Made by a program: the position numbers and the translations under genes
Notes under the pieces: model-generated
What the model saw: the letters and a program-made list of their open reading frames with translations, nothing else
The model's database searches: none
Told to the model about the DNA's origin: nothing
DNA from: an uncultured bacterium
GTDB lineage: Bacteria; SAR324; NAC60-12
Direction: 5' to 3'
Assembly (NCBI GenBank): GCA_964010765.1
Contig: CAXGMD010000045.1
Span: forward strand, 1 to 28,122
Length of the DNA: 28,122 bases
In this document: positions 1-23,273 of the stretch, piece after piece
Layout of the letters: every line of letters starts with the position of its first letter
Position numbering within the stretch: position 1 is the first letter of the stretch

Positions 1-102
1 TCCCTTTAACTTGTCTGGATGCATGTTGGAGCCAATCGCAAAATTCCAAATATCTTCCGTAGTTTGTTCTGGAGGATTTTCAGCAGATGTCGGTGGGATC
101 AT
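1..102 (-). CDS. Gamma-glutamylcyclotransferase-like protein, 5' part (runs off the window edge)
   Basis: Manual translation from ATG at 102: MIPPTSAENPPEQTTEDIWNFAIGSNMHPDKLKG. WNFAIGSNM resembles the GGCT/AIG2 N-terminal motif YFAYGSNM. Not in the ORF track. Confidence 0.6.
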   Translation of the reverse strand, partial: MIPPTSAENPPEQTTEDIWNFAIGSNMHPDKLKG

Positions 103-221
103 GGGGTTAAATTGCGGTTGAAAGCAAAACTAAGTTGCTTGGGCTTTTTTTGGCAACGTGATTATCAATTGAGCGAGCGAAGCAAGCTACGGTCAATGGT
201 GAGTTGACCAAATGTGAATTC

Positions 222-1151
222 CTACATGTTGACAAGTTCACACATCTGTTCAGCTGTTTCCTGTAAGACCGGCCAATTTTCTGTATGTGAATTGTATGCG
301 ATATGATCCAAACCAATGTGAAGATAACAAGCGCTAAGTCGTTCTTCTAGATTTGTTGGTGTGTAACCAACTTGAATCCATCGATTTTCCAGGGCTTCTC
401 GAAGCAGGGGAACATCGAGATTTGTGTGCCAGGGCGCCCAGAATTCAAACCAGGCCAAATCGTAGAGGTGATCTCCCAAACGTCCACAGCCCCAATCAAA
501 GACTGCGTTGATGCGTCCTCCATCAACTAGGACATTACGATTCATCAAATCGCAGTGCAGCAAAGAACGAGGGACATCCGTTAAGGCAAAATTCTTCAAC
601 TTATCCAACCCTCGCTCAAAAACATCCCTTCCTGATGGAGAATTCTGTTCCAGTTTGCGACGCCAACCGTGAGTCCGTTGGGTCGGCTTGTCTTCAACAA
701 CAGTGAGCAGATGTTCCCTCCAAGTAGCACAATTAGCGGTGCCATCTTTGTCCCAATGTCCCACTCCAGCGGTCTCTTTGAGATCTGCAGTTCGCAAAGC
801 CTCCAGTACATTGACCAAATCCGGAATCACGCCCCGCCAAATCTCAGGGGCCACATTCTCAAGAGGAATCCCATGTGCTCTGCGAGAGATAGCAAAGTAG
901 CCATCCAGCGCTTCCCCCACCTCAAAAACCTCAGGAATGGGGAGCAGTGCTGAGCTAAATCTGGCCGCCCAGCGATCTTTTTGAAAATCTTCGATGTAAC
1001 GCCCAAAGCGGATTGCATATTCCTGGTCTCCAACAATGTATCCAAAACAACGAGACCAAGCGCCCTGGCCGATCATCGTAAGCTGTTGAGGCTCAGCTGA
1101 GAGATGGCTTCGTAGAAAATGATGGGCTTGATTTGGGGATACCGCTGACAT
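222..1151 (-). CDS. Aminoglycoside phosphotransferase (APH) family kinase, hygromycin-B kinase-like
   Basis: HCDLMNRN catalytic loop and DWG motif. N-lobe GQGAWSRCF..KDR..LPIPEV..ISRRAHG resembles APH(4)/Hph. Start moved from 1244 to ATG 1151 (MSAVSPNQ). Confidence 0.85.
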   Translation of the reverse strand: MSAVSPNQAHHFLRSHLSAEPQQLTMIGQGAWSRCFGYIVGDQEYAIRFGRYIEDFQKDRWAARFSSALLPIPEVFEVGEALDGYFAISRRAHGIPLENVAPEIWRGVIPDLVNVLEALRTADLKETAGVGHWDKDGTANCATWREHLLTVVEDKPTQRTHGWRRKLEQNSPSGRDVFERGLDKLKNFALTDVPRSLLHCDLMNRNVLVDGGRINAVFDWGCGRLGDHLYDLAWFEFWAPWHTNLDVPLLREALENRWIQVGYTPTNLEERLSACYLHIGLDHIAYNSHTENWPVLQETAEQMCELVNM

Positions 1152-1236
1152 CGATCTTGAAGTGAAGGCCGTGTTCCAAAAATCTGGGAGTTGAATCAAC
1201 CCTTTGAAACAACGTAGGAGCTTGGCAATTGTGAGT

Positions 1237-1655
1237 ACTGACAAGAAGTTTGTCTAGACCGACCCCTTAGATGGATGATCTAAGCAAATTAATCCAGTTC
1301 TTTGTCAGCGTCGGCAAGATGATGGGCAGGAGCCAGAGAATGGGAGAGGATGTGGGATCTGTTGGCACAGCCAGGAAAAGTGACTTTAAAACCTGGCTGT
1401 GCCTTCAGGTGAGAGGATTGGGCTAAGTCAAGACCCTCACCTGAGGTCGTTGTAGAACTATGCAAACAAAGATACGCCTCAGCACCCAGAGAGACTCGTT
1501 GTAAACCCTCTGGGCGTGAGAATCAGCAGAGAGTGAAACACTCCCCGTTTGAGCAAGATAGTCATGAAGATTTTCTCGGTTCCACTGCTGGGCCCCGAAT
1601 CTTCATAATATAGGCATCCTGTCCTGGAAAATCCGGACTCTCAACCTATGGTCGG
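1237..1655 (-). ncRNA. Candidate structured RNA (sRNA or long 5' leader) made of tandem hairpins
   Basis: Stems at 1610-1649, 1562-1608, 1527-1547, 1478-1520, 1405-1444, 1364-1403 (perfect 12 bp GGCACAGCCAGG/CCTGGCTGTGCC) and 1237-1309. Most stem mismatches become G-U pairs on the minus strand. No ORF of 60 aa or more lies inside it. Confidence 0.6.
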
Positions 1656-1662
1656 GTAAGCT

Positions 1663-1732
1663 AGTCTTTAGTTGATTATTTACCAGCAAAGTTTGAGAGC
1701 AGATTGAGCAGATTTAAATTAAGTTATTGATA
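1663..1732 (-). promoter_or_regulatory. Duplicated promoter-like element, copy L
   Basis: Reverse complement of 1679-1730 matches 4721-4772 at 42/52 nt ungapped. TATCAATAACTTA (1732-1720) fits the IHF consensus WATCAANNNNTTR. CTCAA at 1708-1704 and 1697-1693. TTGCTG-N15-AAGACT. Confidence 0.65.
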
Positions 1733-1851
1733 AATTTAATGAAAATTTCAAAGCGCGAAAAGCGTAATTCCAAAAAAAATCTTTTTTTATTTTATCGAAA
1801 AACCTATCGTGCCGATTTTAAAACCAACTGCTCTGCTCTCTATTGCTGACC

Positions 1852-4611
1852 ATGCTTTACAGATACTCATTCACAATTTGGATGCTGATCTTCGTTGGGA
1901 GTATTCTCTCAGGTGTCCATAGCTGGGCGAAGTCACCCGTTGAACTCAATGCCGGGTTTGAGTCAATCTATCTTCGCTCCGAATTGGAGTTCCTTGAAGA
2001 TCCCTCAGGATTGATATCATTGGAGCAGGTGCTGAGTGCTGAAAATCAGCAGCGCTTTCAACCCAACGGAGAAAAGGTTTTTAATCAAGGAAATACAAAC
2101 TCGGTCTATTGGTTGCGTTTCAGTGTTGCGAATCCCACCGCCAAATCCATTCCCCTAATCTTCAGTATTGAGAACATTTACGGATCCCTTGAACTCTATG
2201 GAATAAAGCCGACTGGAGAGAGTTCCTTGGTTTTCCAGAAATCAGCCCGACAGCTTGTCAAGGAGGGAGGAACAACCTGGGATCTGCAGAATACTTTGAT
2301 ATCGGCAAATGCTAATCAGCAAACAGAATACTACCTGCGTCTTGAACCCAACCTGATTCTACGAGCAGAAATTTCAATTTGGGAACCAGAGGCGCTTAGA
2401 GAGGATTTCACTGACAGATACAATCTACTAAGTCTTAGCTGGGGGGCGATTAGTTGTAACGCATTTTTCAGTCTTTTGTTCTTCTTTTTTCTTCGCGATA
2501 GAACCTACTTATTCTACGGCCTGCATCTACTTTTCTTCACCTTCCACCGCATGTTTACTAAGGGATGGTGGATCACTGACTTTCCAAGCCTCGATTGGTT
2601 CAACTGGGTACGCATCTATGTTGTGGGATTGTCAATCATCACCGTCTTACTTTTCTTCTCAAAAGTCCTAGATCTAAAAAAGAAACATCCAATTTCGCAC
2701 AAGATCATCAGATCTGCTGTGCTCTGCATTCTTGGAATCTCATTCCTAGTGGCTTGGTTCGAGCCCCATCAAGCATTTCGAGTCTTCATGACCCTCTCAG
2801 CCATTTCCACCCTGTTTCTGCTGATTCCTTACAGGGCTTGGAGAACTGGAGACAAGAACGCCCTCTTCTATTCCCTGGGCTGGGGACTCCTATGCGTATC
2901 TACTTTGATAGGAGCTCTAAATGCCATGGGATTTCTGGAGTTTCCAACTCCTGTCTACTTTGTAATGGAATTGGGTGCTTTTTCAGAGTCCCTCCTTTTC
3001 TCAATCGCATTGGCATTTCGAGTTCCTCAGAATGTTCGGGAACGCCAGAGAGCCCAAGAACAATTGTTGAAGCAAATGCAGGCGACGGAACGCTTCAAAA
3101 ATCAATTTCTGGCTAACACCTCTCACGAACTGAAAACACCCTTGCATGGCATCATGGGACTCGCAGAAAACCTGCTTACTGAAGCTCGTCAGCAAGGCAT
3201 GCAGCAGATGTCTGAAACGCTCCATTTGATGATCCAAAGCGGAAGGCGCTTGAATCTGCTCATCAATAATCTACTGGATCAGGCAGCACTAAGAGAGAAT
3301 CGATTAACAATGCATCCAGAGCTATGCTACCTGCAGCCGCTCGTGCGCTCTGCGGTGGACCTGGTCAACGTCCAATTTTCTACAAAAAAGCTCCGCGTCG
3401 AAAATCAGGTGTCTGAATTTGTCCTCCCAGTTCATGCGGACCCATCAAGGATTGAGCAGGTTCTGCTAAACCTCCTTTACAATGCATGTAAATTTACCTC
3501 GCAAGGACGAATTCAAATTCGATCCGCAACAGATGATGAGAGTGTACGAACCGAGATTCACGATTCAGGACCAGGTGTTCATGATGCTGATCGTAAAATG
3601 ATCTTCGAAGCCTTCGAACAACAAAACTCGGCTGTGACAGAAGGCATCGGCCTGGGCCTTTCAATCTCGAGAGAAATCATTGAGGAACATGGAGGTCAAA
3701 TCGGAGTAGAGCCTTCTCCTCTGGGCGGGGCGTGCTTCTGGTTCTCTCTGCCACTGGCTCAACCCACTCAAATCCCTTTGACGGAGGAGGGGCTCAATGA
3801 AAAAACCAGTGATGAAATTTCTTTTCCCTCCAGAGTCACATCAAATTTAAGGACTAGTGGGAGTATTTCCATTTTGATTGTCGATGATGATCCCGTAAAT
3901 CTGCACATCCTCACAGGGATGCTCACTGAAACTGACTGGACCTTCACCTGTTGCAGCTCTGGTCAGGAAGCCCTGGAGTTAATGAGTCAAACCTCAGACT
4001 TTGACTTAGTGTTACTGGACTTGATGATGGATGGAATGGACGGCATTGAGCTCTGCACAACTCTACGCCAACGATTTACCAAGGAGGATTTGCCGATTCT
4101 CTTTCTGACTGCACTGAGTCGGAGTGAGGAGTTGACCCAGGCTTTTGAAGCGGGTGCAAACGACTATCTGACAAAGCCAATTCAGAAAGCGGAATTGAAA
4201 GCCAGAATTTCTTCACAGCTCGAACTCGCGCAATTGCGCCATTCAAATCCACCGGCTGTTCATGGGAATAGTAAATCGATGAGAGATCTGCTCGCCCAAA
4301 CCATGCAGGTTGTAGTTCATTGCTGGGAACATTGCCAAGGGAAGGATCAAATTTCCTTGGCTCAGGAATCAAAACTTTGGGGGGCATACCTGGATAAGAC
4401 CAATGGGGTCTGGCGATCACCCGGAATTAGACAATACCTCTCCGCCTCCTCCATGCCTCAAAGGCCACGCTGGCGTAAAGTTGCTCAGACTGTTGAGTTT
4501 CTTCAAGCTCGGCTTCCAGAGGATGACTCCCACCAGCAAGAACTTTCAGAGTTACTTGCAGAAATCTACGAGAAGTCCCACCAGGAAGGCCCCAATTCAT
4601 CCGAGCCCTAA
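1852..4611 (+). CDS. 7TMR-DISMED2/7TM hybrid sensor histidine kinase (HisKA-HATPase-REC) with C-terminal ChiS-like DNA-binding domain
   Basis: Signal peptide; DISMED2-like LEFLEDPSG..YWLRF; about 7 hydrophobic helices; H-box FLANTSHELKTPL; N/G boxes NLLYNACKFT, DSGPG, GIGLGL; REC IVDDD..LLDLMM..LTA..TKP; tail LAQESKLWGAYLD..YL..MPQRPRWRKV. Start taken as ATG 1852. Confidence 0.92.
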   Translation: MLYRYSFTIWMLIFVGSILSGVHSWAKSPVELNAGFESIYLRSELEFLEDPSGLISLEQVLSAENQQRFQPNGEKVFNQGNTNSVYWLRFSVANPTAKSIPLIFSIENIYGSLELYGIKPTGESSLVFQKSARQLVKEGGTTWDLQNTLISANANQQTEYYLRLEPNLILRAEISIWEPEALREDFTDRYNLLSLSWGAISCNAFFSLLFFFFLRDRTYLFYGLHLLFFTFHRMFTKGWWITDFPSLDWFNWVRIYVVGLSIITVLLFFSKVLDLKKKHPISHKIIRSAVLCILGISFLVAWFEPHQAFRVFMTLSAISTLFLLIPYRAWRTGDKNALFYSLGWGLLCVSTLIGALNAMGFLEFPTPVYFVMELGAFSESLLFSIALAFRVPQNVRERQRAQEQLLKQMQATERFKNQFLANTSHELKTPLHGIMGLAENLLTEARQQGMQQMSETLHLMIQSGRRLNLLINNLLDQAALRENRLTMHPELCYLQPLVRSAVDLVNVQFSTKKLRVENQVSEFVLPVHADPSRIEQVLLNLLYNACKFTSQGRIQIRSATDDESVRTEIHDSGPGVHDADRKMIFEAFEQQNSAVTEGIGLGLSISREIIEEHGGQIGVEPSPLGGACFWFSLPLAQPTQIPLTEEGLNEKTSDEISFPSRVTSNLRTSGSISILIVDDDPVNLHILTGMLTETDWTFTCCSSGQEALELMSQTSDFDLVLLDLMMDGMDGIELCTTLRQRFTKEDLPILFLTALSRSEELTQAFEAGANDYLTKPIQKAELKARISSQLELAQLRHSNPPAVHGNSKSMRDLLAQTMQVVVHCWEHCQGKDQISLAQESKLWGAYLDKTNGVWRSPGIRQYLSASSMPQRPRWRKVAQTVEFLQARLPEDDSHQQELSELLAEIYEKSHQEGPNSSEP

Positions 4612-4718
4612 GGCCCCAAACTCCCACTAAATTCCCACTGTTTCCCCTATTCCTTCCAGTCTGCAAAGCAATTTTGAATCTGAATTTTTCCAATTGAGCT
4701 GATTAAATTTTCATATAT

Positions 4719-4788
4719 ATTCAATGACTTGTTCTAAATTTACTCAAAATGCTCTCAATCTTTGCTGGCAAAAATTTGGGGGCAAACT
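4719..4788 (+). promoter_or_regulatory. Duplicated promoter-like element, copy R
   Basis: 4721-4772 matches copy L at 42/52. ATTCAATGACTTG (4719-4731) is one mismatch from the IHF consensus. CTCAA at 4743 and 4754. TTGCTG-N15-CAAACT. Confidence 0.65.
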
Positions 4789-4843
4789 ACTGTCTCTCCC
4801 AGCGTTTCAATCCAAATCAATTGTTTTTCCTCGCAGTCACCCC

Positions 4844-5053
4844 ATGGTTGTTCAATACAAAAGAACCGATAATCAACATCAATTCAGTATCCAGGGGGAA
4901 GCAACTGAAAAGGAGGTAGAGGCACTTCTGCAACGATTCCAGGAGTTGCTTCATCCTGAACCGGACTTGCAGGTCAATCTTGTTTTGGATTGTTCAGACT
5001 ATTTAGGGAGACGTTCTGAAGACCCTGCTCCTCCCGAAGGCAGCGAATCCTGA
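4844..5053 (+). CDS. Small hypothetical protein (69 aa), weak resemblance to the N-terminal half of a STAS/SpoIIAA fold
   Basis: ATG 4844. FSIQGE..EVEALLQRFQELL..VNLVLDCSDY gives a beta-alpha-beta pattern. No clear SD. The upstream ATG at 4724 lies inside the promoter element. Confidence 0.45.
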   Translation: MVVQYKRTDNQHQFSIQGEATEKEVEALLQRFQELLHPEPDLQVNLVLDCSDYLGRRSEDPAPPEGSES

Positions 5054-5249
5054 CTTTGCTTCCGTTAGGGGAATCCAACGTCTCCTCCTAGTCCGATTTA
5101 CAAAGAATTCGGAACCAGATGGTTCCAGACGTAACAGGCGGGATGCCCATGAAATCATTGCCATATCGGGTTTCTCGCCACCACAAAATAGGATGCTTGC
5201 TCGTTGAGCAACAGTGGTGTGAGAGACCGTGACACCTGAACCTCTCTCA
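5039..5249 (+). ncRNA. Candidate structured RNA or leader of tandem hairpins
   Basis: Stems 5039-5063, 5078-5132 (inner TCCGA/TCGGA and GGAACC/GGTTCC), 5137-5179, 5179-5219 and 5220-5249. G-U pairs favour the plus strand. Confidence 0.45.
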
Positions 5250-5269
5250 GCATTGGAAAGGAGAGCACC

Positions 5270-5548
5270 ATGTCATTTTCTCAGCCTTTGAATCCAACCA
5301 AGAAATTCGCAACACACCCGATGTCCTCTCGACTTCGTGATTGGGAAGACCTTAAAGTTCATTTGATCTTCTCGGCAGGTCGCCTTTCGCCAGAGTTGTT
5401 TGATTTGTTGCTCCGATGGCTGGGTCGACGAAAGGAAGAGCCTCAAATCTGCTTGTTGTTCTGGCTCGCCACCTACAATCCAACTTTGTTTCATTTGACC
5501 CTGGCCGTTCGTCGTTTCTTACTCAGCCCTATGCAGTTGATCAAATAG
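5270..5548 (+). CDS. Hypothetical protein (92 aa)
   Basis: Strong SD AAGGAG 6 nt before the ATG; helical Leu/Trp-rich sequence; no family recognised. Confidence 0.6.
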   Translation: MSFSQPLNPTKKFATHPMSSRLRDWEDLKVHLIFSAGRLSPELFDLLLRWLGRRKEEPQICLLFWLATYNPTLFHLTLAVRRFLLSPMQLIK

Positions 5549-5638
5549 ACTCTGGAACATCACTGAACTCGTTCTGAGCAAGAAATACTATCAGCAGCAC
5601 CCCTCTCAATTAGACTTACTTTTTAAGCAGTGACAACC

Positions 5639-5881
5639 ATGATTCACTTTCCTAGGAGGGTTCTCCCCAAACAATCTCGTAAAGCTGAGAGCAAGCGGCC
5701 AACTCGTGAAGAGATTGAAGATCAAGTGGCCAAGTTCCTACAGCAAGGAGGAGTGATTCAGCAGCTTCATCCTGAAACAACCCAAAACACTGGGCTAGCA
5801 GAAATCGGTTCGCAAATTGATTTGAACATTCAAGGGTTGAACGAGGAAGCTCGCTTGAATCTGGATAATTTCAGCAAATAA
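5639..5881 (+). CDS. SutA-like small protein (putative RNA polymerase-binding domain)
   Basis: PTREEIEDQVAKFLQQGGVIQQL resembles the SutA core (EEFLARGGKVQEI type). Start is ATG 5639 or GTG 5630. Confidence 0.65.
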   Translation: MIHFPRRVLPKQSRKAESKRPTREEIEDQVAKFLQQGGVIQQLHPETTQNTGLAEIGSQIDLNIQGLNEEARLNLDNFSK

Positions 5882-5888
5882 TTGAACG

Positions 5889-6323
5889 GTGCAAAGATTG
5901 AATCCAAGAATATTACTCCTGGAAAATGCTAAAGAAAACGCTGCTCCATTCGTCAATAATTTAGAACAACTAGGCTGGCAGGTTGATTTTGTTCAGGATG
6001 GTATCGACGCTCTGGTAATTGGCCTAACAACGCATTTCGATACTGCATTGCTCGACCTCGACATCATGGATATCGATCCACTACGCTTGGTGCAGCATCT
6101 CCATCAGCATTCTGCATCCCTTCAAATCATTGGAATGAGCCACTTTACTAGTTCAGAGGATTTTCAAAGAGTGATGAAAGCAGGAGCGGCCCACCTGCTA
6201 GCAAAGCCACTTTCGCTTGGTCAACTTGTTCAGTTGTTACCTCCACGAATTCGAGTTGCTCCATCGCATCTTGCCACTTCCAAAACTACAGTCCCCAACT
6301 TTCAGGCAAACTCCTTTCGCTAA
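5889..6323 (+). CDS. Single-domain response regulator (REC), atypical acidic pocket
   Basis: ILLLEN..DGIDAL..FDTALLDLD..IIGMS..KAGAAHLLAKP; no output domain. Confidence 0.85.
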   Translation: MQRLNPRILLLENAKENAAPFVNNLEQLGWQVDFVQDGIDALVIGLTTHFDTALLDLDIMDIDPLRLVQHLHQHSASLQIIGMSHFTSSEDFQRVMKAGAAHLLAKPLSLGQLVQLLPPRIRVAPSHLATSKTTVPNFQANSFR

Positions 6324-16981: not shown

Positions 16982-17875
16982 ATGACCAAGAATTCCTCCT
17001 CAGAAATCCCCCAAGGAAGACTGGCGCTGATCTTCAGTGCACCAGCTTTGCTAATCCTTGCGGTGACCGTCCTGGTTCCACTGGCTTACGCCATCTATCT
17101 CAGTTTTCATCGCTATAACCTCAAACGAGCCAAGCGACCTTTTGCGGGTTTTCGGAATTACGAAAAAATTCTGACAGATGATAAATTCTGGGATTCCCTG
17201 GCAACTAGTTTTATCTTTGCGGCGAGTGCCGTGGCAGTTATCACCGTCGTCGCTTTCTTCCTCGCCTTGCTTCTGAATCAGGATTATCCTGGAAGAGGGA
17301 TCCTTCGAGCACTGTTACTGATCCCCTGGGCGATACCTGATGTGGTCAATGCTCTTCTCTGGAAGTGGCTGTTGCATCCAGCTTTTGGAGTAATGAACGC
17401 TCTATTTCAAATGGGGGGCATCATCGATCAGTATGTTGCTTGGTTGACCACGATGCCCAGCGCAATGATCTGGGTGATCATTGCCTATTCCTGGAAGAAC
17501 ATCCCCCTGGCCACATTGCTTATTCTTGCAGGACTTCAAACGATCCCCAAAACACTGCATGAAGCCGCAGAATTGGAAGGTGCAAATGCCTGGAAGCGGA
17601 CCCAATACATCACACTGCCTTTACTTCGTCCAACACTCACCGTCGTGCTGATCTTTGAAACCATCTTTGCTCTAAAGGTATTCGACATCATTTATGTATT
17701 GACTTCAGGAGGCCCGGGCAAGTCCACCACTGTCCTCGGTTGGAGCATCTATATCAACACCTTCAAGAAGCTGGATTTCGGAACGGGCAGCGCGCTGGCC
17801 ATGATTCTGGGCTTGATCACCCTCTTCATCGCCATCGTCTTCTATGCCTTCCTGGACCGTGGGGAAAAACAGTGA
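16982..17875 (+). CDS. CUT1 ABC permease (MalF-like)
   Basis: FAGFRNY, LLLIPWAIP, EAA loop LHEAAELEGA, TSGGPG..T. Confidence 0.93.
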   Translation: MTKNSSSEIPQGRLALIFSAPALLILAVTVLVPLAYAIYLSFHRYNLKRAKRPFAGFRNYEKILTDDKFWDSLATSFIFAASAVAVITVVAFFLALLLNQDYPGRGILRALLLIPWAIPDVVNALLWKWLLHPAFGVMNALFQMGGIIDQYVAWLTTMPSAMIWVIIAYSWKNIPLATLLILAGLQTIPKTLHEAAELEGANAWKRTQYITLPLLRPTLTVVLIFETIFALKVFDIIYVLTSGGPGKSTTVLGWSIYINTFKKLDFGTGSALAMILGLITLFIAIVFYAFLDRGEKQ

Positions 17876-18762
17876 AGCGTAATAACCTCACTCGCTATAT
17901 TCTCCTTTATCTTGCGTCTGCGCTTTTCCTGCTGGTCTTTATCGGTCCTTTCGTCTGGCTCGTCAGCTCCAGCCTGCAACTCGAACGGCAGCTCGTCAAA
18001 GTTCCTCCTGTTTGGTTGCCCGATCCTGTTAGCCTGGCAAGCTACAAGGAGATCTTCATGGGGGCTTTTTTCGATGAAGCAGAGGTTTCCTCATACGGTG
18101 TTAGTTCTTCCTACCAGTCACGGATATATCTCGGCTCTTTCCTCAACAGTGGAATCATTGCCCTCAGTGTCTCTTTCTTCAGTGTGGTTTTTGGGGCCTA
18201 TGCCGCCTACCCCATCGCTCGCCTCAACTTCCGAGGTAGATATACTCTGCTTTTTTCGATCCTGGTCGTACGACTTATCCCTGCCCTCGCTCTGGCGATT
18301 CCCATTGTGCTCTTCGCCAAGAAAATGGGGATGAATGACAACCTGCTGACGCTGATCTTCATCAACATGTCTTTCGTCCTGCCGTATTCGATCTGGTTGC
18401 TGCAGGCCTACTTCAAAACCATTCCTACTGAATTGGAAGACGCAGCTCGAATGGATGGCTGCAACCGCTTCCAGGTAGCCAACAAGATCATCATTCCCTT
18501 GTCGATCCCCGGGATGACTACTGCAGGAATTCTTGCCTTTCTTTTGTCCTGGGGGGAATTCCTCTTTGCTCTACTGATTACAGAGACGGAACAGTCCTAC
18601 ACGAGTACCGTGGTCGCCGCCATGTTTGCCAATGACGTCGATGTCAACTACGTCACCATCATCGCAGCAGGGGTACTGGCCGTGATCCCCCCCGTAATTT
18701 TTGCTCTATTTTTCCAGAAGTACATCATCAGTGGCCTGCTCTCCGGAGCTGTTAAAAATTGA
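17872..18762 (+). CDS. CUT1 ABC permease (MalG-like), copy 1
   Basis: GTG 17872 overlaps the upstream TGA; ELEDAARMDGC, FLLSWGEFLFAL, FQKYIISGLLSGAVK. Confidence 0.93.
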   Translation: MKRNNLTRYILLYLASALFLLVFIGPFVWLVSSSLQLERQLVKVPPVWLPDPVSLASYKEIFMGAFFDEAEVSSYGVSSSYQSRIYLGSFLNSGIIALSVSFFSVVFGAYAAYPIARLNFRGRYTLLFSILVVRLIPALALAIPIVLFAKKMGMNDNLLTLIFINMSFVLPYSIWLLQAYFKTIPTELEDAARMDGCNRFQVANKIIIPLSIPGMTTAGILAFLLSWGEFLFALLITETEQSYTSTVVAAMFANDVDVNYVTIIAAGVLAVIPPVIFALFFQKYIISGLLSGAVKN

Positions 18763-18923
18763 AAAAACCACCTAGCAAAACGGCCACTGGCCAAGCTACC
18801 GATCTTAGTGTGTGCAGCGATGCTCGAACTGGCCCTTGACGTAAAGCAAGCACTCATCACTGGCCAAGTCCCAATCGCGGTCTACCAAGACAAGCTTGCT
18901 CAGTTGAAATTGGGAGAATCTAA

Positions 18924-19811
18924 GTGAAGAGCAATCGGATCATTCGCTACATACTCCTCTATTTTGCTTCTGCGCTGTTTCTGGCTGTCTTCGTCGGCCC
19001 CTTTCTCTGGATGATTGGTGCGAGCTTACAACTAGAAAGACAGTTGATGCAGGTTCCCGCTTCCTTGTGGCCTGATCCTGTGAGTTTTGCCAGCTACAAG
19101 GAAATCATTTATGGAGCCCTGTTCGATGAAGCCGTGATTTCAACCGAAGGGTATAGCTCCTCGTACCAAGCTCGCGTCTACCTCGGTTCCTTTGTAAACA
19201 GCGGAATCATTGCCCTCAGTGTCTCTTTCTTCAGTGTCGTTTTTGGGGCCTATGCCGCCTACCCCATCGCTCGCCTCAACTTCCGTGGTCGCTACACCCT
19301 GCTTTTTTCCATTCTGGTTGTCAGACTTGTGCCAGCCCTATCCCTGGCTATTCCAATTGTGCTCTTCGCCAAGAAAATGGGGATGAATGACAACTTGGTG
19401 ACTTTGATCTTCATCAACATGTCCTTCGTCCTGCCGTATTCGATTTGGTTGCTGCAGGCTTACTTCAAAACGATTCCCACTGAGTTGGAGGACGCTGCCA
19501 GAATGGACGGCTGTAACCGCTTCCAGGTAGCCAACAAGATCATCATCCCTCTCTCCATTCCAGGCCTAACGACAGCAGCCATCCTCGCCTTCTTGCTCTC
19601 CTGGGGGGAATTCCTCTTCGCTCTGCTGATCACCGAGACCGAGAAGTCCTACACCAGCACCGTGGTCGCTGGGATGTTCGCCACAGCTCTAGATGTCAGC
19701 TATGTCACCATCATCGCTGCTGGAGTACTTGCCGTAATCCCCCCTGTTGTCTTTGCTTTGTTCTTCCAGAAGTACATCATCAGTGGCTTGCTCTCTGGGG
19801 CTGTCAAGTGA
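18924..19811 (+). CDS. CUT1 ABC permease (MalG-like), copy 2
   Basis: SD GGGAG, GTG start; same motifs as copy 1 and colinear with it. Confidence 0.93.
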   Translation: MKSNRIIRYILLYFASALFLAVFVGPFLWMIGASLQLERQLMQVPASLWPDPVSFASYKEIIYGALFDEAVISTEGYSSSYQARVYLGSFVNSGIIALSVSFFSVVFGAYAAYPIARLNFRGRYTLLFSILVVRLVPALSLAIPIVLFAKKMGMNDNLVTLIFINMSFVLPYSIWLLQAYFKTIPTELEDAARMDGCNRFQVANKIIIPLSIPGLTTAAILAFLLSWGEFLFALLITETEKSYTSTVVAGMFATALDVSYVTIIAAGVLAVIPPVVFALFFQKYIISGLLSGAVK

Positions 19812-20339: not shown

Positions 20340-23273
20340 ATGAAAGCTCTTCTCATCATCTTCACAAGTCTGATGCTCTTCGGCTGTATCGAAGAAGGAA
20401 CCATCGTCTACGATCAAGACTACCCAGAAGCTCCTGAGAATATCGGGGGATCCGGCTCAGGAGCAGATCGAGCTCCAGGTGATGGTGCTGGAAGTGCCAG
20501 CGGAACCTCTGATGGCTCTGGATCAACCGGAGGCTCCTCAGATGGAAGTGGGGTAGATGGTGGAGCTACGAGTACCGGATCGGATGGCAGTACTACCGGT
20601 GGTGATGGTAGTGGTGATGGCTCTACTGGTGGTTCCACAGGCGGAAGCACAAGCGGTGGAACTGGCACAGATGGTGGTGATACCAGCACTGGTTCTTCTG
20701 ACGGATCCGGAAGCACAGGTGGTTCAACAGATGGTGGCTCAGGTTCCGGTGACACAGGTGGGGATACTGGAAGTAGCTCAACTGGTGGGGATACCAGCAC
20801 TGGTTCCGATGGTGGGGAAACAGGTAATGGTTCTTCTGACGGATCCGGAAGCACAGGTGGTTCAACAGATGGTGGCTCAGGTGACGGCTCAACGGGAGGC
20901 TCTGCAGACGGAAGCGGTAGTGATGGCTCTGGATCAACTGGAAGTACAGGTGGTACTGACGGGGGAACAACTGATGGTTCCGGTTCCGGATCAACCGGAG
21001 GTTCCTCAGGTGGTACAACTGACGGTGCCGGAAGCACAGGCGGTGGAACTGGCACAGATGGTGGAGACGGTGCTGGTACTGACGGTGGCGATAGCGGTAG
21101 TGGTACTGGTGATGGTTCAGGTACAGGCGGAGGTGATGGAGCAGGTGACGGTGGCGACGGCACGGACGGTGGCACCGAGCTTGATGCCCCGACTGTAACA
21201 CTTACTGCCAAAGAGCAGAAGATTGTTGTTACCTGGAGCCCAGTAGATAACGCAACGAGCTACAATCTAACTTGGGTTTCATCAGATGGAACTGAGAACA
21301 TTATTGACGTGTCCGCTCAGCAGGTAGCCGATGGTGCTAATCCAATCGTGTTTGCTCATGCTCCATTGGTAGCAGGACAGAACTATACCTACACTGTAAC
21401 GGCAGTGGCTGCTGATGGTACAGAAGCAGTCGGCACTCCACTTACTGAATCAGCACTGGCACTTGGTTGTACTCCTTCCACATACGAACCTGAAGGATTA
21501 GTTGCTTACTATTCCTTTGAAGGTGACTTGAGCGACTCTGCTGGCTCATATGACCTAACTCCAACCGGTGATTCGATTGCTTATTCAAATGGTTGTGTAA
21601 ATGGTAAAGCAGGTCACTTTGATGGTGATGGAGGTTACGCTTACAACTTGGACTTCAACGACGAGAATGTTGATGAAGTTGCTGACAACACTTGGAGCAT
21701 CAGTGTATGGGCAAACGCAGATGAGGACATGAATAAGTTTGCTTCAATTGTTTCAACTACTGACAGACAAGAAGATGATTGGGACAACGGTTTCCAGTTG
21801 GATGTAAACAGTGACAGAGAGCTACGCTGGTTCTTCAGCAAGACTGGTAATGATCCTAACCAACTGAACAGTCGTGTAAAGATGACATTGGGTGAGTGGT
21901 ATCATGTTACTGTTACATACGACAACGGTGTAGGACGATTGTATGTAAACGGCGTAGAGCGCAAGAATGCTACAGGCTTGGACTTGGGCTTCAACAGACT
22001 GAAGTTAGGTATTAACAGGTTTGGGCAAGAGCCATGGAAAGGTTTTGTAGATGAGTTGATGGTGTTTGGTGAGACACTGAGCGCTGATGAGGTTATGAGC
22101 ATTTACAACAACACACTACCAGGCACACCTCAGAACGCCACAGCTACTAACTGGGTTGGTGATACTGTAGTAGTTGGCTGGGAGGCTGTAGAAGGTATTA
22201 ATGAGTATAATGTTTACTACTCAACTGGTGGAACTGTTAATGAAAACTCACCATATATTACTGTAACAGGTGGAACTGTTGTTAACTTTGACAATCTTAC
22301 ACAAGGACAAGACTATACATATGCAGTAGCAGGTGTAAGTCCACTTGGTGTAGGCGAACTTTCAGTTCCTACTACAATTACTGTTGATGGTATGTTGTTA
22401 GCTGACGAGCCAGCTTTTGAGACAACTGTTGATAATACTATTAACGGCACTGCTCGTAAGGCTGAAGCAATTGAGTTCAGTCCTGATGGATCCAAAATGT
22501 ACTTGATTATTGCCACTTGGACTGGGGAAGGTAGTTTTGTACAATATGATTTAGCTACTACTTGGGATCCAAGAACAGCTACACGAACAGAACGATTCCA
22601 ATTCTGTAACGCTTCACTCAATTTTGGGAATACTTGTTTCACCAATAACCTCAAATTTATCGCTGATGGCAGAAAGTTGATTGGATTGAATGATGCCAGT
22701 TACAACGGTATTCAGAGTAGTATTAGAGTATGGGACTTGGATGTCGCATATGATATTAGTACTCTTAATTCAGAAGTAGATTATACTCTTGAAACTTATG
22801 ATAATACTAGAGTTACACATCCAGCTGCGTTTGCATTCAATCCAGAAGGCACAAGGATGATTGTTGGTGGATATACAAGAATGGGCGACATTGGAATTAG
22901 TCAAGAGTGGGAATTAGCTGGTTCATATGATTTCTCAACAATGACTAAACTTGCTGAAACAGACGGAAGGTACTTTCGTCAGGGTACTTCAGCAGACACT
23001 CATCAAGAAATTATTTGGAAGGCTGACGGAACTAAGTTCATTATACTACAAGACGAGGGCTCCGTTCGTACTTATAATGTGAGTGTACCATTTGAGCTTT
23101 CATCATCAGTTTATGGTACTGAATCAGCATTAACATTAGATAAGGAGGTAATTAAGTTTCCTTACCAAAGCGTAAGAGCAATTCATTTCAGTCCAGCACA
23201 AGACAGACTGTATTATGTTAAAGATGAAGCAGATGGTACTGTAACAATTGGTTCAATGCCATTCAGCTGGTAA
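20340..23273 (+). CDS. Large surface lipoprotein: Gly/Ser/Thr/Asp linker, FN3, LamG-like, FN3, beta-propeller-like C-terminus
   Basis: Lipobox LFGC (Cys16); about 245-aa G/S/T/D tract; VTWSPVDNATSYNL and YTYAVAGV (FN3); LVAYYSFEG..WYHVTVTYD..LYVNG..VDELMVF (LamG); FSPDGSKMY, FNPEGTRMI and WKADGTKFI blades. SD GAGGA. Confidence 0.9.
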   Translation: MKALLIIFTSLMLFGCIEEGTIVYDQDYPEAPENIGGSGSGADRAPGDGAGSASGTSDGSGSTGGSSDGSGVDGGATSTGSDGSTTGGDGSGDGSTGGSTGGSTSGGTGTDGGDTSTGSSDGSGSTGGSTDGGSGSGDTGGDTGSSSTGGDTSTGSDGGETGNGSSDGSGSTGGSTDGGSGDGSTGGSADGSGSDGSGSTGSTGGTDGGTTDGSGSGSTGGSSGGTTDGAGSTGGGTGTDGGDGAGTDGGDSGSGTGDGSGTGGGDGAGDGGDGTDGGTELDAPTVTLTAKEQKIVVTWSPVDNATSYNLTWVSSDGTENIIDVSAQQVADGANPIVFAHAPLVAGQNYTYTVTAVAADGTEAVGTPLTESALALGCTPSTYEPEGLVAYYSFEGDLSDSAGSYDLTPTGDSIAYSNGCVNGKAGHFDGDGGYAYNLDFNDENVDEVADNTWSISVWANADEDMNKFASIVSTTDRQEDDWDNGFQLDVNSDRELRWFFSKTGNDPNQLNSRVKMTLGEWYHVTVTYDNGVGRLYVNGVERKNATGLDLGFNRLKLGINRFGQEPWKGFVDELMVFGETLSADEVMSIYNNTLPGTPQNATATNWVGDTVVVGWEAVEGINEYNVYYSTGGTVNENSPYITVTGGTVVNFDNLTQGQDYTYAVAGVSPLGVGELSVPTTITVDGMLLADEPAFETTVDNTINGTARKAEAIEFSPDGSKMYLIIATWTGEGSFVQYDLATTWDPRTATRTERFQFCNASLNFGNTCFTNNLKFIADGRKLIGLNDASYNGIQSSIRVWDLDVAYDISTLNSEVDYTLETYDNTRVTHPAAFAFNPEGTRMIVGGYTRMGDIGISQEWELAGSYDFSTMTKLAETDGRYFRQGTSADTHQEIIWKADGTKFIILQDEGSVRTYNVSVPFELSSSVYGTESALTLDKEVIKFPYQSVRAIHFSPAQDRLYYVKDEADGTVTIGSMPFSW
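20690..20882 (+). repeat. Exact 55-bp in-frame direct repeat in the Gly-rich linker
   Basis: TGGTTCTTCTGACGGATCCGGAAGCACAGGTGGTTCAACAGATGGTGGCTCAGGT at 20690-20744 and 20828-20882 (138-bp offset). Confidence 0.9.

Follow-up and report, generated by a model that had tools for sequence, protein, structure and literature searches.

The uncultured SAR324 lineage is abundant in the sea, and the literature that we searched describes no small RNA (sRNA) from this phylum. The stretch of DNA analyzed here (the window) comprises the 28,122 nucleotides of contig CAXGMD010000045.1 (assembly GCA_964010765.1), from a SAR324 genome (G000, 92% complete) in which neither Hfq nor ProQ was found. Near its left end, a preliminary description made from the letters alone had proposed an RNA of about 400 nt on the minus strand (1237–1655), folded into seven hairpins and serving either as a standalone sRNA or as a ~500-nt leader of an aminoglycoside phosphotransferase (APH)-type kinase gene. 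This raises the question of whether a discrete RNA is made from this locus, where it begins and ends, and what it might act on. We find an RNA of ~278 nt that is uncatalogued, clade-limited and single-copy, and its expression is well evidenced. Within its last hairpin is a concealed segment that is complementary to the beginning of the cell-envelope gene tolR, a predicted target, and hence the RNA may have a regulatory role.

Limits, fold and conservation of the RNA

Sixteen sequencing runs recorded as RNA, from 13 studies, contain 30–48% of the sampled words, and four of these (X1, X2, X5 and X6) were compared with positions 1–6000 of the window; 13 further runs that are labeled or guessed to be RNA (30–41% of words) do not enter the transcript evidence. 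Contigs begin at 1638, 1638 and 1637 in X1, X2 and X5, and end at 1355–1361 in X1, X2 and X6, that is, in three of the four runs for either end. Instead of the ~400 nt first proposed, the contig ends hence delimit a main RNA of about 278 nt, from 1638 to ~1361 on the minus strand. Three of nine metagenome loci also mark the 5′ end, one stopping at 1638 (L081) and two joining unrelated sequence at 1636 (L076 and L082). In the X1 metatranscriptome the contig depth, which is a poor measure of expression and the only sense in which we call the RNA abundant, is 1,965 over 1445–1638 and 277 for the portion down to 1361, compared with 2–25 for the listed contigs on other genes (3–16 for the two flanking coding genes, up to 25 near 5200–5900). 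In X5 the sole record over the 6,000 nt is 1289–1637. All of these records are contigs, not raw reads, from runs picked for containing the RNA sequence, and DNA is possibly present in them. An adapter remnant at 1356 in X1 has the opposite orientation to those on two plus-strand genes of the same library (4239 and 4824), which places the RNA on the minus strand; a remnant in X5 gives the same strand, provided that this library was stranded like X1. The strand call is based on one contig each, with adapter identities that we presume to be correct. Overall, we consider it very likely that the RNA is a discrete transcript.

Six hairpins lie where the preliminary description had placed them. From 5′ to 3′ on the minus strand they are H1 (1621–1638, its outer stem reaching ~1649), H2 (1562–1608), H3 (1523–1552), H4 (1477–1521), H5 (1405–1444) and the 3′-terminal H6 (1364–1403, with a 12-bp stem and a 16-nt loop), and a single-stranded linker (1445–1476) has a core that is nearly invariant in the alignment. 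H1, with 95.8% of its alignment cells paired and three pairs showing one-sided changes, probably shields the 5′ end. H3 is disrupted by a 2-nt deletion in two metagenome loci (L079 and L080). A candidate pseudoknot joins the H2 loop (1585–1579) to the linker (1458–1452) in a 7-bp helix; its pairing is intact in 98.8% of cells, and its changes comprise two that are one-sided and none that is two-sided.

The region 1237–1655 is much more stable than its shuffles whichever strand is folded (minus, −152.4 kcal/mol, z −4.4, 0 of 100 shuffles as good; plus, −149.5 kcal/mol, z −4.0). For the 278-nt core the minus strand reaches −114.4 kcal/mol (z −6.9) versus −96.6 (z −3.7) for the plus strand, with 40 shuffles each, and it has the lower energy in all eight genomes that carry the RNA and the lower z in seven. 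None of 509 equal-length intergenic segments of the source genome, which had arbitrary ends while the ends of the RNA were chosen, is as stable for its GC content. The most stable of these segments after GC correction is G000:C54:20159-20436 (residual z −4.5, plus strand).

Five of the six hairpins had been said to hold positions that form G-U pairs on the minus strand only. We count one such pair in H2, two in H3, five in H4 (−24.5 on minus versus −17.0 on plus) and one in H5, and none in H6 or the inner H1; the count of five is reached only if the outer H1 stem, which has one G-U pair in the fold, is included. The selection at the RNA level that was read from these pairs is partly upheld: 89.8% of alignment cells pair and the changes are mostly one-sided and tolerant of G-U, with G-U types exceeding A-C types 29 to 15 at paired columns. 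The suggested covariation check, on the other hand, came out negative, given that no measure rises above shuffles (12 sequences and 80 pairs, of which two have a two-sided change; 480 of 500 shuffles have as many), although the shallow alignment gives this test low power. The sole clear two-sided change sits in H6 (C-G / U-G / U-A). Homologues of the more distant clade described below fold weakly (z −1.4 to −1.9), and together with the mostly one-sided changes and a covariation not above shuffles this leads us to describe the structure as real but loosely kept.

The RNA is single-copy in the source genome, which speaks against a repeat or mobile element. Of 88 genomes from the SAR324 phylum, a covariance model detects it in eight, the source genome among them and all from one genus, and its absence extends over 79 genomes of other genera and one member of the genus itself, G001 (model R2). 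Seven of the eight other members of the genus have full-length matches with 74–92% identity, and the neighbors are unchanged as far as the contigs reach; the 3′ motif of the RNA is present in six genome records. The homologues form a near clade (~93% identity) and a distant clade (76%). In the distant clade the RNA is far better conserved than the adjoining tract and leader (76% versus 44–50%, Fisher p 1e-8), and marginally better than fourfold-degenerate sites (67%, p 0.06). In G001, the only genus member without the RNA, three features described below are missing as well: a 69-aa open reading frame (ORF), the repeat in front of rpoN, and a close orthologue of the kinase. Fold, conservation above the neighboring non-coding DNA and metatranscriptome contigs thus agree with the structured minus-strand RNA that had been postulated.

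Several leads to wider relatives were rejected. Matches of ~20 bits to a covariance model R1, in G001 and at G000:C175, cover CU-rich DNA and a promoter-like box, not the hairpins; short blastn matches in G024 and G039 (27–32 nt, E ~8e-4) were treated as chance; and three viral loci with a 17-nt motif of the linker give no real model match (best 8.9 bits). No homologue was found beside the kinase paralogues of G009 and G057. As the preliminary description had stated, no Rfam family could be recognized: none of Rfam 15 reaches its gathering cut-off in the window, where the best score is 19.4 bits against a cut-off of 80.6 and the matches are weak (E 1–10). Transfer-messenger RNA, RNase P RNA, 6S RNA and SRP RNA are alike in size and apparent abundance, but all four have genes of their own elsewhere in the genome. 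The literature that we searched on SAR324 and RNA contains no description of this RNA, and neither do the parts that we consulted of PMC13414033, PMC7368042, PMC4962555 and PMC12379486; it may already be among the 66 psRNA groups of Shi et al. 2009.

Probable promoter, 3′ end and neighboring genes

Upstream of the RNA lies an element of CTCAA repeats spaced by 11 bp, a probable activator site that occurs twice in the window, with relatives conserving both copies. Copy L (1679–1730, minus strand; 77–94% identity across relatives) ends 45 nt upstream of the RNA 5′ end at 1638 by hand count, and copy R (4721–4772, plus strand) ends 44 nt before the 5′ end of a second transcript at ~4812, where the X1 and X6 contigs open with the same 11 letters before 4824. 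These near-equal distances suggest that 1638 and ~4812 are start sites under one activator. The −10-like box of copy L, just downstream of which the hairpins had been said to begin, is ~33–40 nt upstream of the observed 5′ end by hand count, and hence too far to be the −10 element of the RNA unless that end is processed. No sigma-70 site is listed by the promoter scans at a spacing that would suit a start at 1638, and inspection by eye with sigma-54, sigma-32, sigma-28 and CIRCE motifs, in the consensus forms that we assume for them, was not convincing.

With a matrix of the 21-bp repeat core, three sites in the genome score above 21 bits: copy R, copy L and the gap upstream of rpoN. The third core (G000:C248:1189-1245, L117) lies in the gap whose flanking genes are rpoN and an lptB-like gene; it points the opposite way to rpoN, and is kept in six RNA-bearing relatives and lost in G001, G009 and G018. 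A box beside it, on the strand opposite rpoN, resembles what we take to be the sigma-54 consensus; G001 has kept this box and not the repeat.

Between the two copies, and divergent from the RNA, is a hybrid sensor kinase gene (1843–4611, plus strand) with 7TMR-DISMED2, 7TMR-DISM_7TM, HisKA, HATPase and receiver domains in Pfam. Behind copy R a gene cluster opens with the 69-aa ORF (4844–5053, plus strand), which is weakly STAS/SpoIIAA-like: it has no Pfam or NCBIfam family, and an Atlas match at rank 8 (0.90) to a cluster that is 61% SpoIIAA-like is a lead only. It is followed by a small SutA-RBD protein (PF20661, 5639–5881) and a lone receiver domain. The second transcript (4812–5053) has a depth of ~90–170 in X1, is also seen in X2 and X6, and encodes a protein that resembles the N-terminal half of STAS domains. 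Relatives of the 69-aa ORF also stand behind 7TMR-DISM kinases in G009 and G057, which belong to another genus, with as many as three such cases per genome and neither the RNA nor the CTCAA element nearby. Based on these loci, the RNA gene probably arose together with the duplicated promoter. Long gaps with several hairpins separate the kinase paralogues from the 69-aa ORF relatives in these two genomes (L113:5800-6400 and L116:5810-6350), and they show no match to model R2. Farther along the window are two tandem ABC permease genes (17875–19811; 69% alike over their first 300 nt and 1052 nt apart) and a 977-aa ORF (20340–23273) that is lipoprotein-like and has an extended region of Gly/Ser/Thr/Asp repeats.

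At the other end, the RNA is followed by an unpaired, C-rich and G-poor tract (1313–1360, minus strand; 17–22 C versus 3–6 G in 8/8 genomes) that is a candidate Rho-loading site. Rho is encoded in the source genome and terminator scans found no intrinsic terminator at the RNA 3′ end or in this tract, so the simplest reading is that Rho loads here and the transcript is then trimmed back to the H6 base. The anti-Shine–Dalgarno seed that had been seen in this CU-rich stretch does not hold up, because the stretch falls outside the main RNA and is the least conserved segment (44–46% identity in the distant clade, with CCUCC in only 2 of 8 genomes).

The proposed seventh hairpin, too, falls outside the main RNA. 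It lies with a conserved box (~1310–1296) at 1237–1312 on the minus strand and is kept in the near clade only, folding to −19 to −22.5 in four near sequences and to −10 to −12 in three distant relatives. In G002 the box runs into an extended −10-like hexamer that was seen by eye and not listed by the promoter scans. Judged by eye, 1237–1312 probably serves the kinase gene as promoter and leader. This gene (222–1151, minus strand, with a Met start at 1151) matches Pfam APH and is APH(4)-like at a score below the family cut-off (NCBIfam APH(4)-Ia, 117.7 bits versus 725; hygromycin-B kinase structures, E 7e-37), a hygromycin-B-kinase-like protein in a marine bacterium. The next gene in relatives presumably encodes a gamma-glutamylcyclotransferase, going by its translation.

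The tolR match and competing readings

The best match to the RNA elsewhere in the genome is antisense to the start of a gene. A 28-nt segment comprising H6 loop, 3′ arm and tail (RNA 251–278; 1361–1388, minus strand) is complementary to tolR from +8 to +34 (G000:C53:1265-1291), over codons 3–12 and the tolQ stop. The genes at this locus encode OmpA-domain, MotA/TolQ/ExbB and ExbD/TolR proteins in a run, which their order lets us read as pal-tolQ-tolR. As tolQ and tolR overlap by 29 nt (G000:C53:1258-1286), the first ten tolR codons are doubly coding, and this explains the conservation of the target site.

All target scans used the start regions of the source genome (3,450 predicted; 3,540 gene calls) for every homologue, and among these tolR is the top antisense match for 8/8 RNA homologues. 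Shuffled sequences do as well in 2 of 500 cases for G000, G003 and G004 and in 43 of 500 for G002, and 26 of 200 find an equally good match at some place in the genome. Against tolR, the family consensus shows a perfect run of 19 nt (E 0.002 genome-wide), with a score reached by 0 of 1000 shuffles and a run length reached by 1 of 3000, and its next-best start-region matches have E values of at least 0.6; no extant genome has a perfect run longer than 14 nt. The tolR-matching segment is also the best conserved part of the RNA, with 25–26 of 28 positions identical in the distant clade versus 185–187 of 250 for the rest (p 0.017–0.06). The match stops exactly at the mapped 3′ end and takes in the open H6 loop. 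Net pairing energies of the RNAs with their own tolR are −4.1 to −15.4 kcal/mol in all seven genomes that have both, weak in G008 (−4.1) and G003 (−7.5), and at one site RNA and target co-vary through A-U, G-U and G-C, never A-C (7/7).

Other results are less favorable. Each lineage has one or two departures from complementarity, several of them uncompensated, for example at tolR codon 3 in G008, G002 and G004 and through a U-to-A change in the distant-clade RNA. When G-U pairs are treated leniently, tolR ranks fourth for the source genome and the top score is attained by 22 of 50 shuffles, and 5 of 300 hairpin-matched controls do as well as H6, with seven modules examined. On sequence grounds the match is probably not chance, and it may reflect a common origin without function. 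An arrangement in which each hairpin serves a different mRNA start was rejected, as the other short matches listed are mostly intragenic or on the wrong strand. In the literature that we searched on tolR and sRNAs, the titles and abstract openings mention no natural sRNA against tolR.

We favor, with a probability of roughly 0.45, a standalone trans-acting sRNA whose terminal hairpin would open onto the tolQ-tolR mRNA without Hfq. Its transcription would start at an activator-dependent promoter, a duplicate of that of the STAS-like/SutA-like cluster, and this duplication would place the RNA in a small regulon for stress or slow growth, together with the site upstream of rpoN. RNA polymerase would run into the C-rich tract, where Rho would end transcription, and trimming would follow to the base of H6, with the terminal hairpins stabilizing the product. 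Pairing with the tolQ-tolR junction would then nucleate at the 11 open nucleotides of the H6 loop and at the 3-nt tail, and the mRNA would displace the H6 5′ arm, giving a duplex of ~26 bp over tolR codons 3–12 and the tolQ stop that would lower TolR synthesis or trigger cleavage. Hfq and ProQ would not be needed. RNAs that depend on them go with an encoded chaperone and an intrinsic terminator with a U tail; neither chaperone was found in the source genome, nor was a terminator-like site at the RNA 3′ end. H2–H5 have their roles outside this model and may bind other targets or a protein. A very abundant RNA with a single modest predicted target is odd.

The standalone RNA might instead act by binding a protein, as a decoy or scaffold and perhaps for a transcription or stress factor, with the tolR match being chance or a relic of the origin of H6. 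The high apparent abundance, the nearly invariant single-stranded linker and loops, the possible pseudoknot kept by one-sided changes, the promoter element in common with the SutA-RBD cluster and the five of six hairpins without an outstanding target would all fit. We nevertheless regard it as somewhat unlikely, given that no partner was identified, that the fold is loosely kept and that conservation is highest in the very segment with the tolR match.

The RNA also contains an ORF of 28 codons (1479–1565, minus strand), the AUG of which lies in the 3′ arm of H2. Its coding status is doubtful, and a stable mRNA for a hydrophobic peptide of 27–28 residues with its start locked in H2, in the manner of a type I toxin or a dual-function RNA, is an unlikely identity for the RNA. 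Although the same ATG and an open frame are found in 8/8 genomes with the stop within one codon, behind a purine-rich stretch and with a mean hydropathy of 0.8–1.2, such an ORF is also yielded by 118 of 2000 column shuffles. Its pN/pS to the distant clade is 0.55–0.66 versus 0.29 for the kinase gene (the whole RNA gives 0.69–1.08 in all six frames), two of nine metagenome loci carry a frameshift (L079 and L080), and it has no Pfam family. The contigs, which would not be able to reveal one, show no antisense antitoxin.

The leader of the kinase operon that was originally offered as the second option, an attenuator or riboswitch that is mostly terminated early, fares worse than the standalone RNA that was offered as the first, because cover falls steeply below ~1361 (in X1 it is far lower there). 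The two features are adjacent and on the same strand in every relative, a Rho tract would suit attenuation, and some records do extend beyond 1361 (to 1289 in X5, over 1215–1365 in one record of X2, to 1193 in L082 and through the kinase gene in L081). However, the 210 nt from the RNA to the start codon are only ~50% identical in the distant clade and hold a separate promoter-like box (~1310–1290), and we found neither an Rfam riboswitch nor an alternative fold joining the RNA to the start codon, which makes a leader improbable.

Still less probable is a stable transcript without function from the duplicated promoter, or a set of DNA palindromes without a role as RNA. A restriction to one clade, a lack of covariation, a weak distant-clade fold and a conservation marginally above fourfold sites are what it would predict, but the RNA is far better conserved than the adjoining non-coding DNA, its paired columns favor G-U over A-C types, the minus strand folds better in 8/8 genomes and the contigs are discrete and of high depth. 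Finally, a CsrB/RsmZ-type sponge for CsrA, driven by the neighboring sensor kinase with its 7TMR-DISM hybrid architecture (which we take to resemble LadS) in a genome that encodes one CsrA, can be set aside as the RNA has only 4–8 GGA in 278 nt, near the 4 expected by chance, all five of the source genome are mostly paired (unpaired probability 0.00–0.33), and CsrA sits in what the translations presumably identify as a flagellar hook-filament cluster, beside a FliW-like ORF.

For the tolR-pairing sRNA, a more specific account is tentative but quite possible: a young sRNA gene from a duplicated stress promoter, with a near-perfect 28-nt antisense arm that is caged in a 3′ hairpin and released by a toehold onto the tolQ-tolR overlap. 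If true, a young sRNA would uncouple translation within the Tol-Pal operon, and it might also encode a small peptide. If the pairing with tolR is real, the locus makes it possible to test how the envelope-constriction machinery is regulated in trans and without a chaperone, by a young sRNA with a promoter origin that can still be read; if it is not, one clade still has an abundant RNA whose role is unknown. Short, single-copy and conspicuous in metatranscriptomes from coastal and marine waters, the RNA is also a ready marker of the state of the clade.

Relation to known regulatory RNAs

CsrB, RsmY and RsmZ are abundant multi-hairpin RNAs with many loop-exposed GGA motifs. The SAR324 RNA resembles them as an abundant multi-hairpin RNA beside a 7TMR-DISM hybrid kinase in a genome with CsrA, but differs in that its GGA are few and buried in stems and in having no Rfam match. 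The plasmid antisense RNAs CopA and RNAI hold a long complementarity in hairpins, nucleate through loops or single-stranded tails and work without a chaperone, much as predicted here. They are encoded opposite their own target with perfect complementarity, whereas the SAR324 RNA has its predicted target on a different contig and matches it imperfectly.

In origin, the RNA can be compared with the psRNAs of ocean metatranscriptomes (Shi, Tyson and DeLong 2009, as cited in the part of PMC13414033 that we consulted), which are abundant intergenic RNAs of uncultured marine bacteria; the SAR324 RNA is likewise abundant, intergenic, from an uncultured marine bacterium and of unknown function. In mode of action, the nearest is RNAIII of Staphylococcus aureus, with 514 nt, 14 hairpins and proven targets at ribosome-binding sites, whose 3′ hairpin loops pair in a way that can propagate into the stem, whose pairing is not affected by Hfq and which contains a 26-codon ORF (PMC4152353, in the sections consulted). 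Both would be long multi-hairpin, trans-acting RNAs that are switched by a two-component system, pair through a 3′ loop and carry a small ORF, features that are predicted from sequence for the SAR324 RNA. The latter is shorter (278 nt, six hairpins), with one predicted target located in the first codons and over an upstream stop, and the two share no sequence or Rfam similarity. By analogy, and as far as the consulted account of RNAIII goes, the SAR324 RNA would work most like RNAIII while being a member of neither that nor any other Rfam family.
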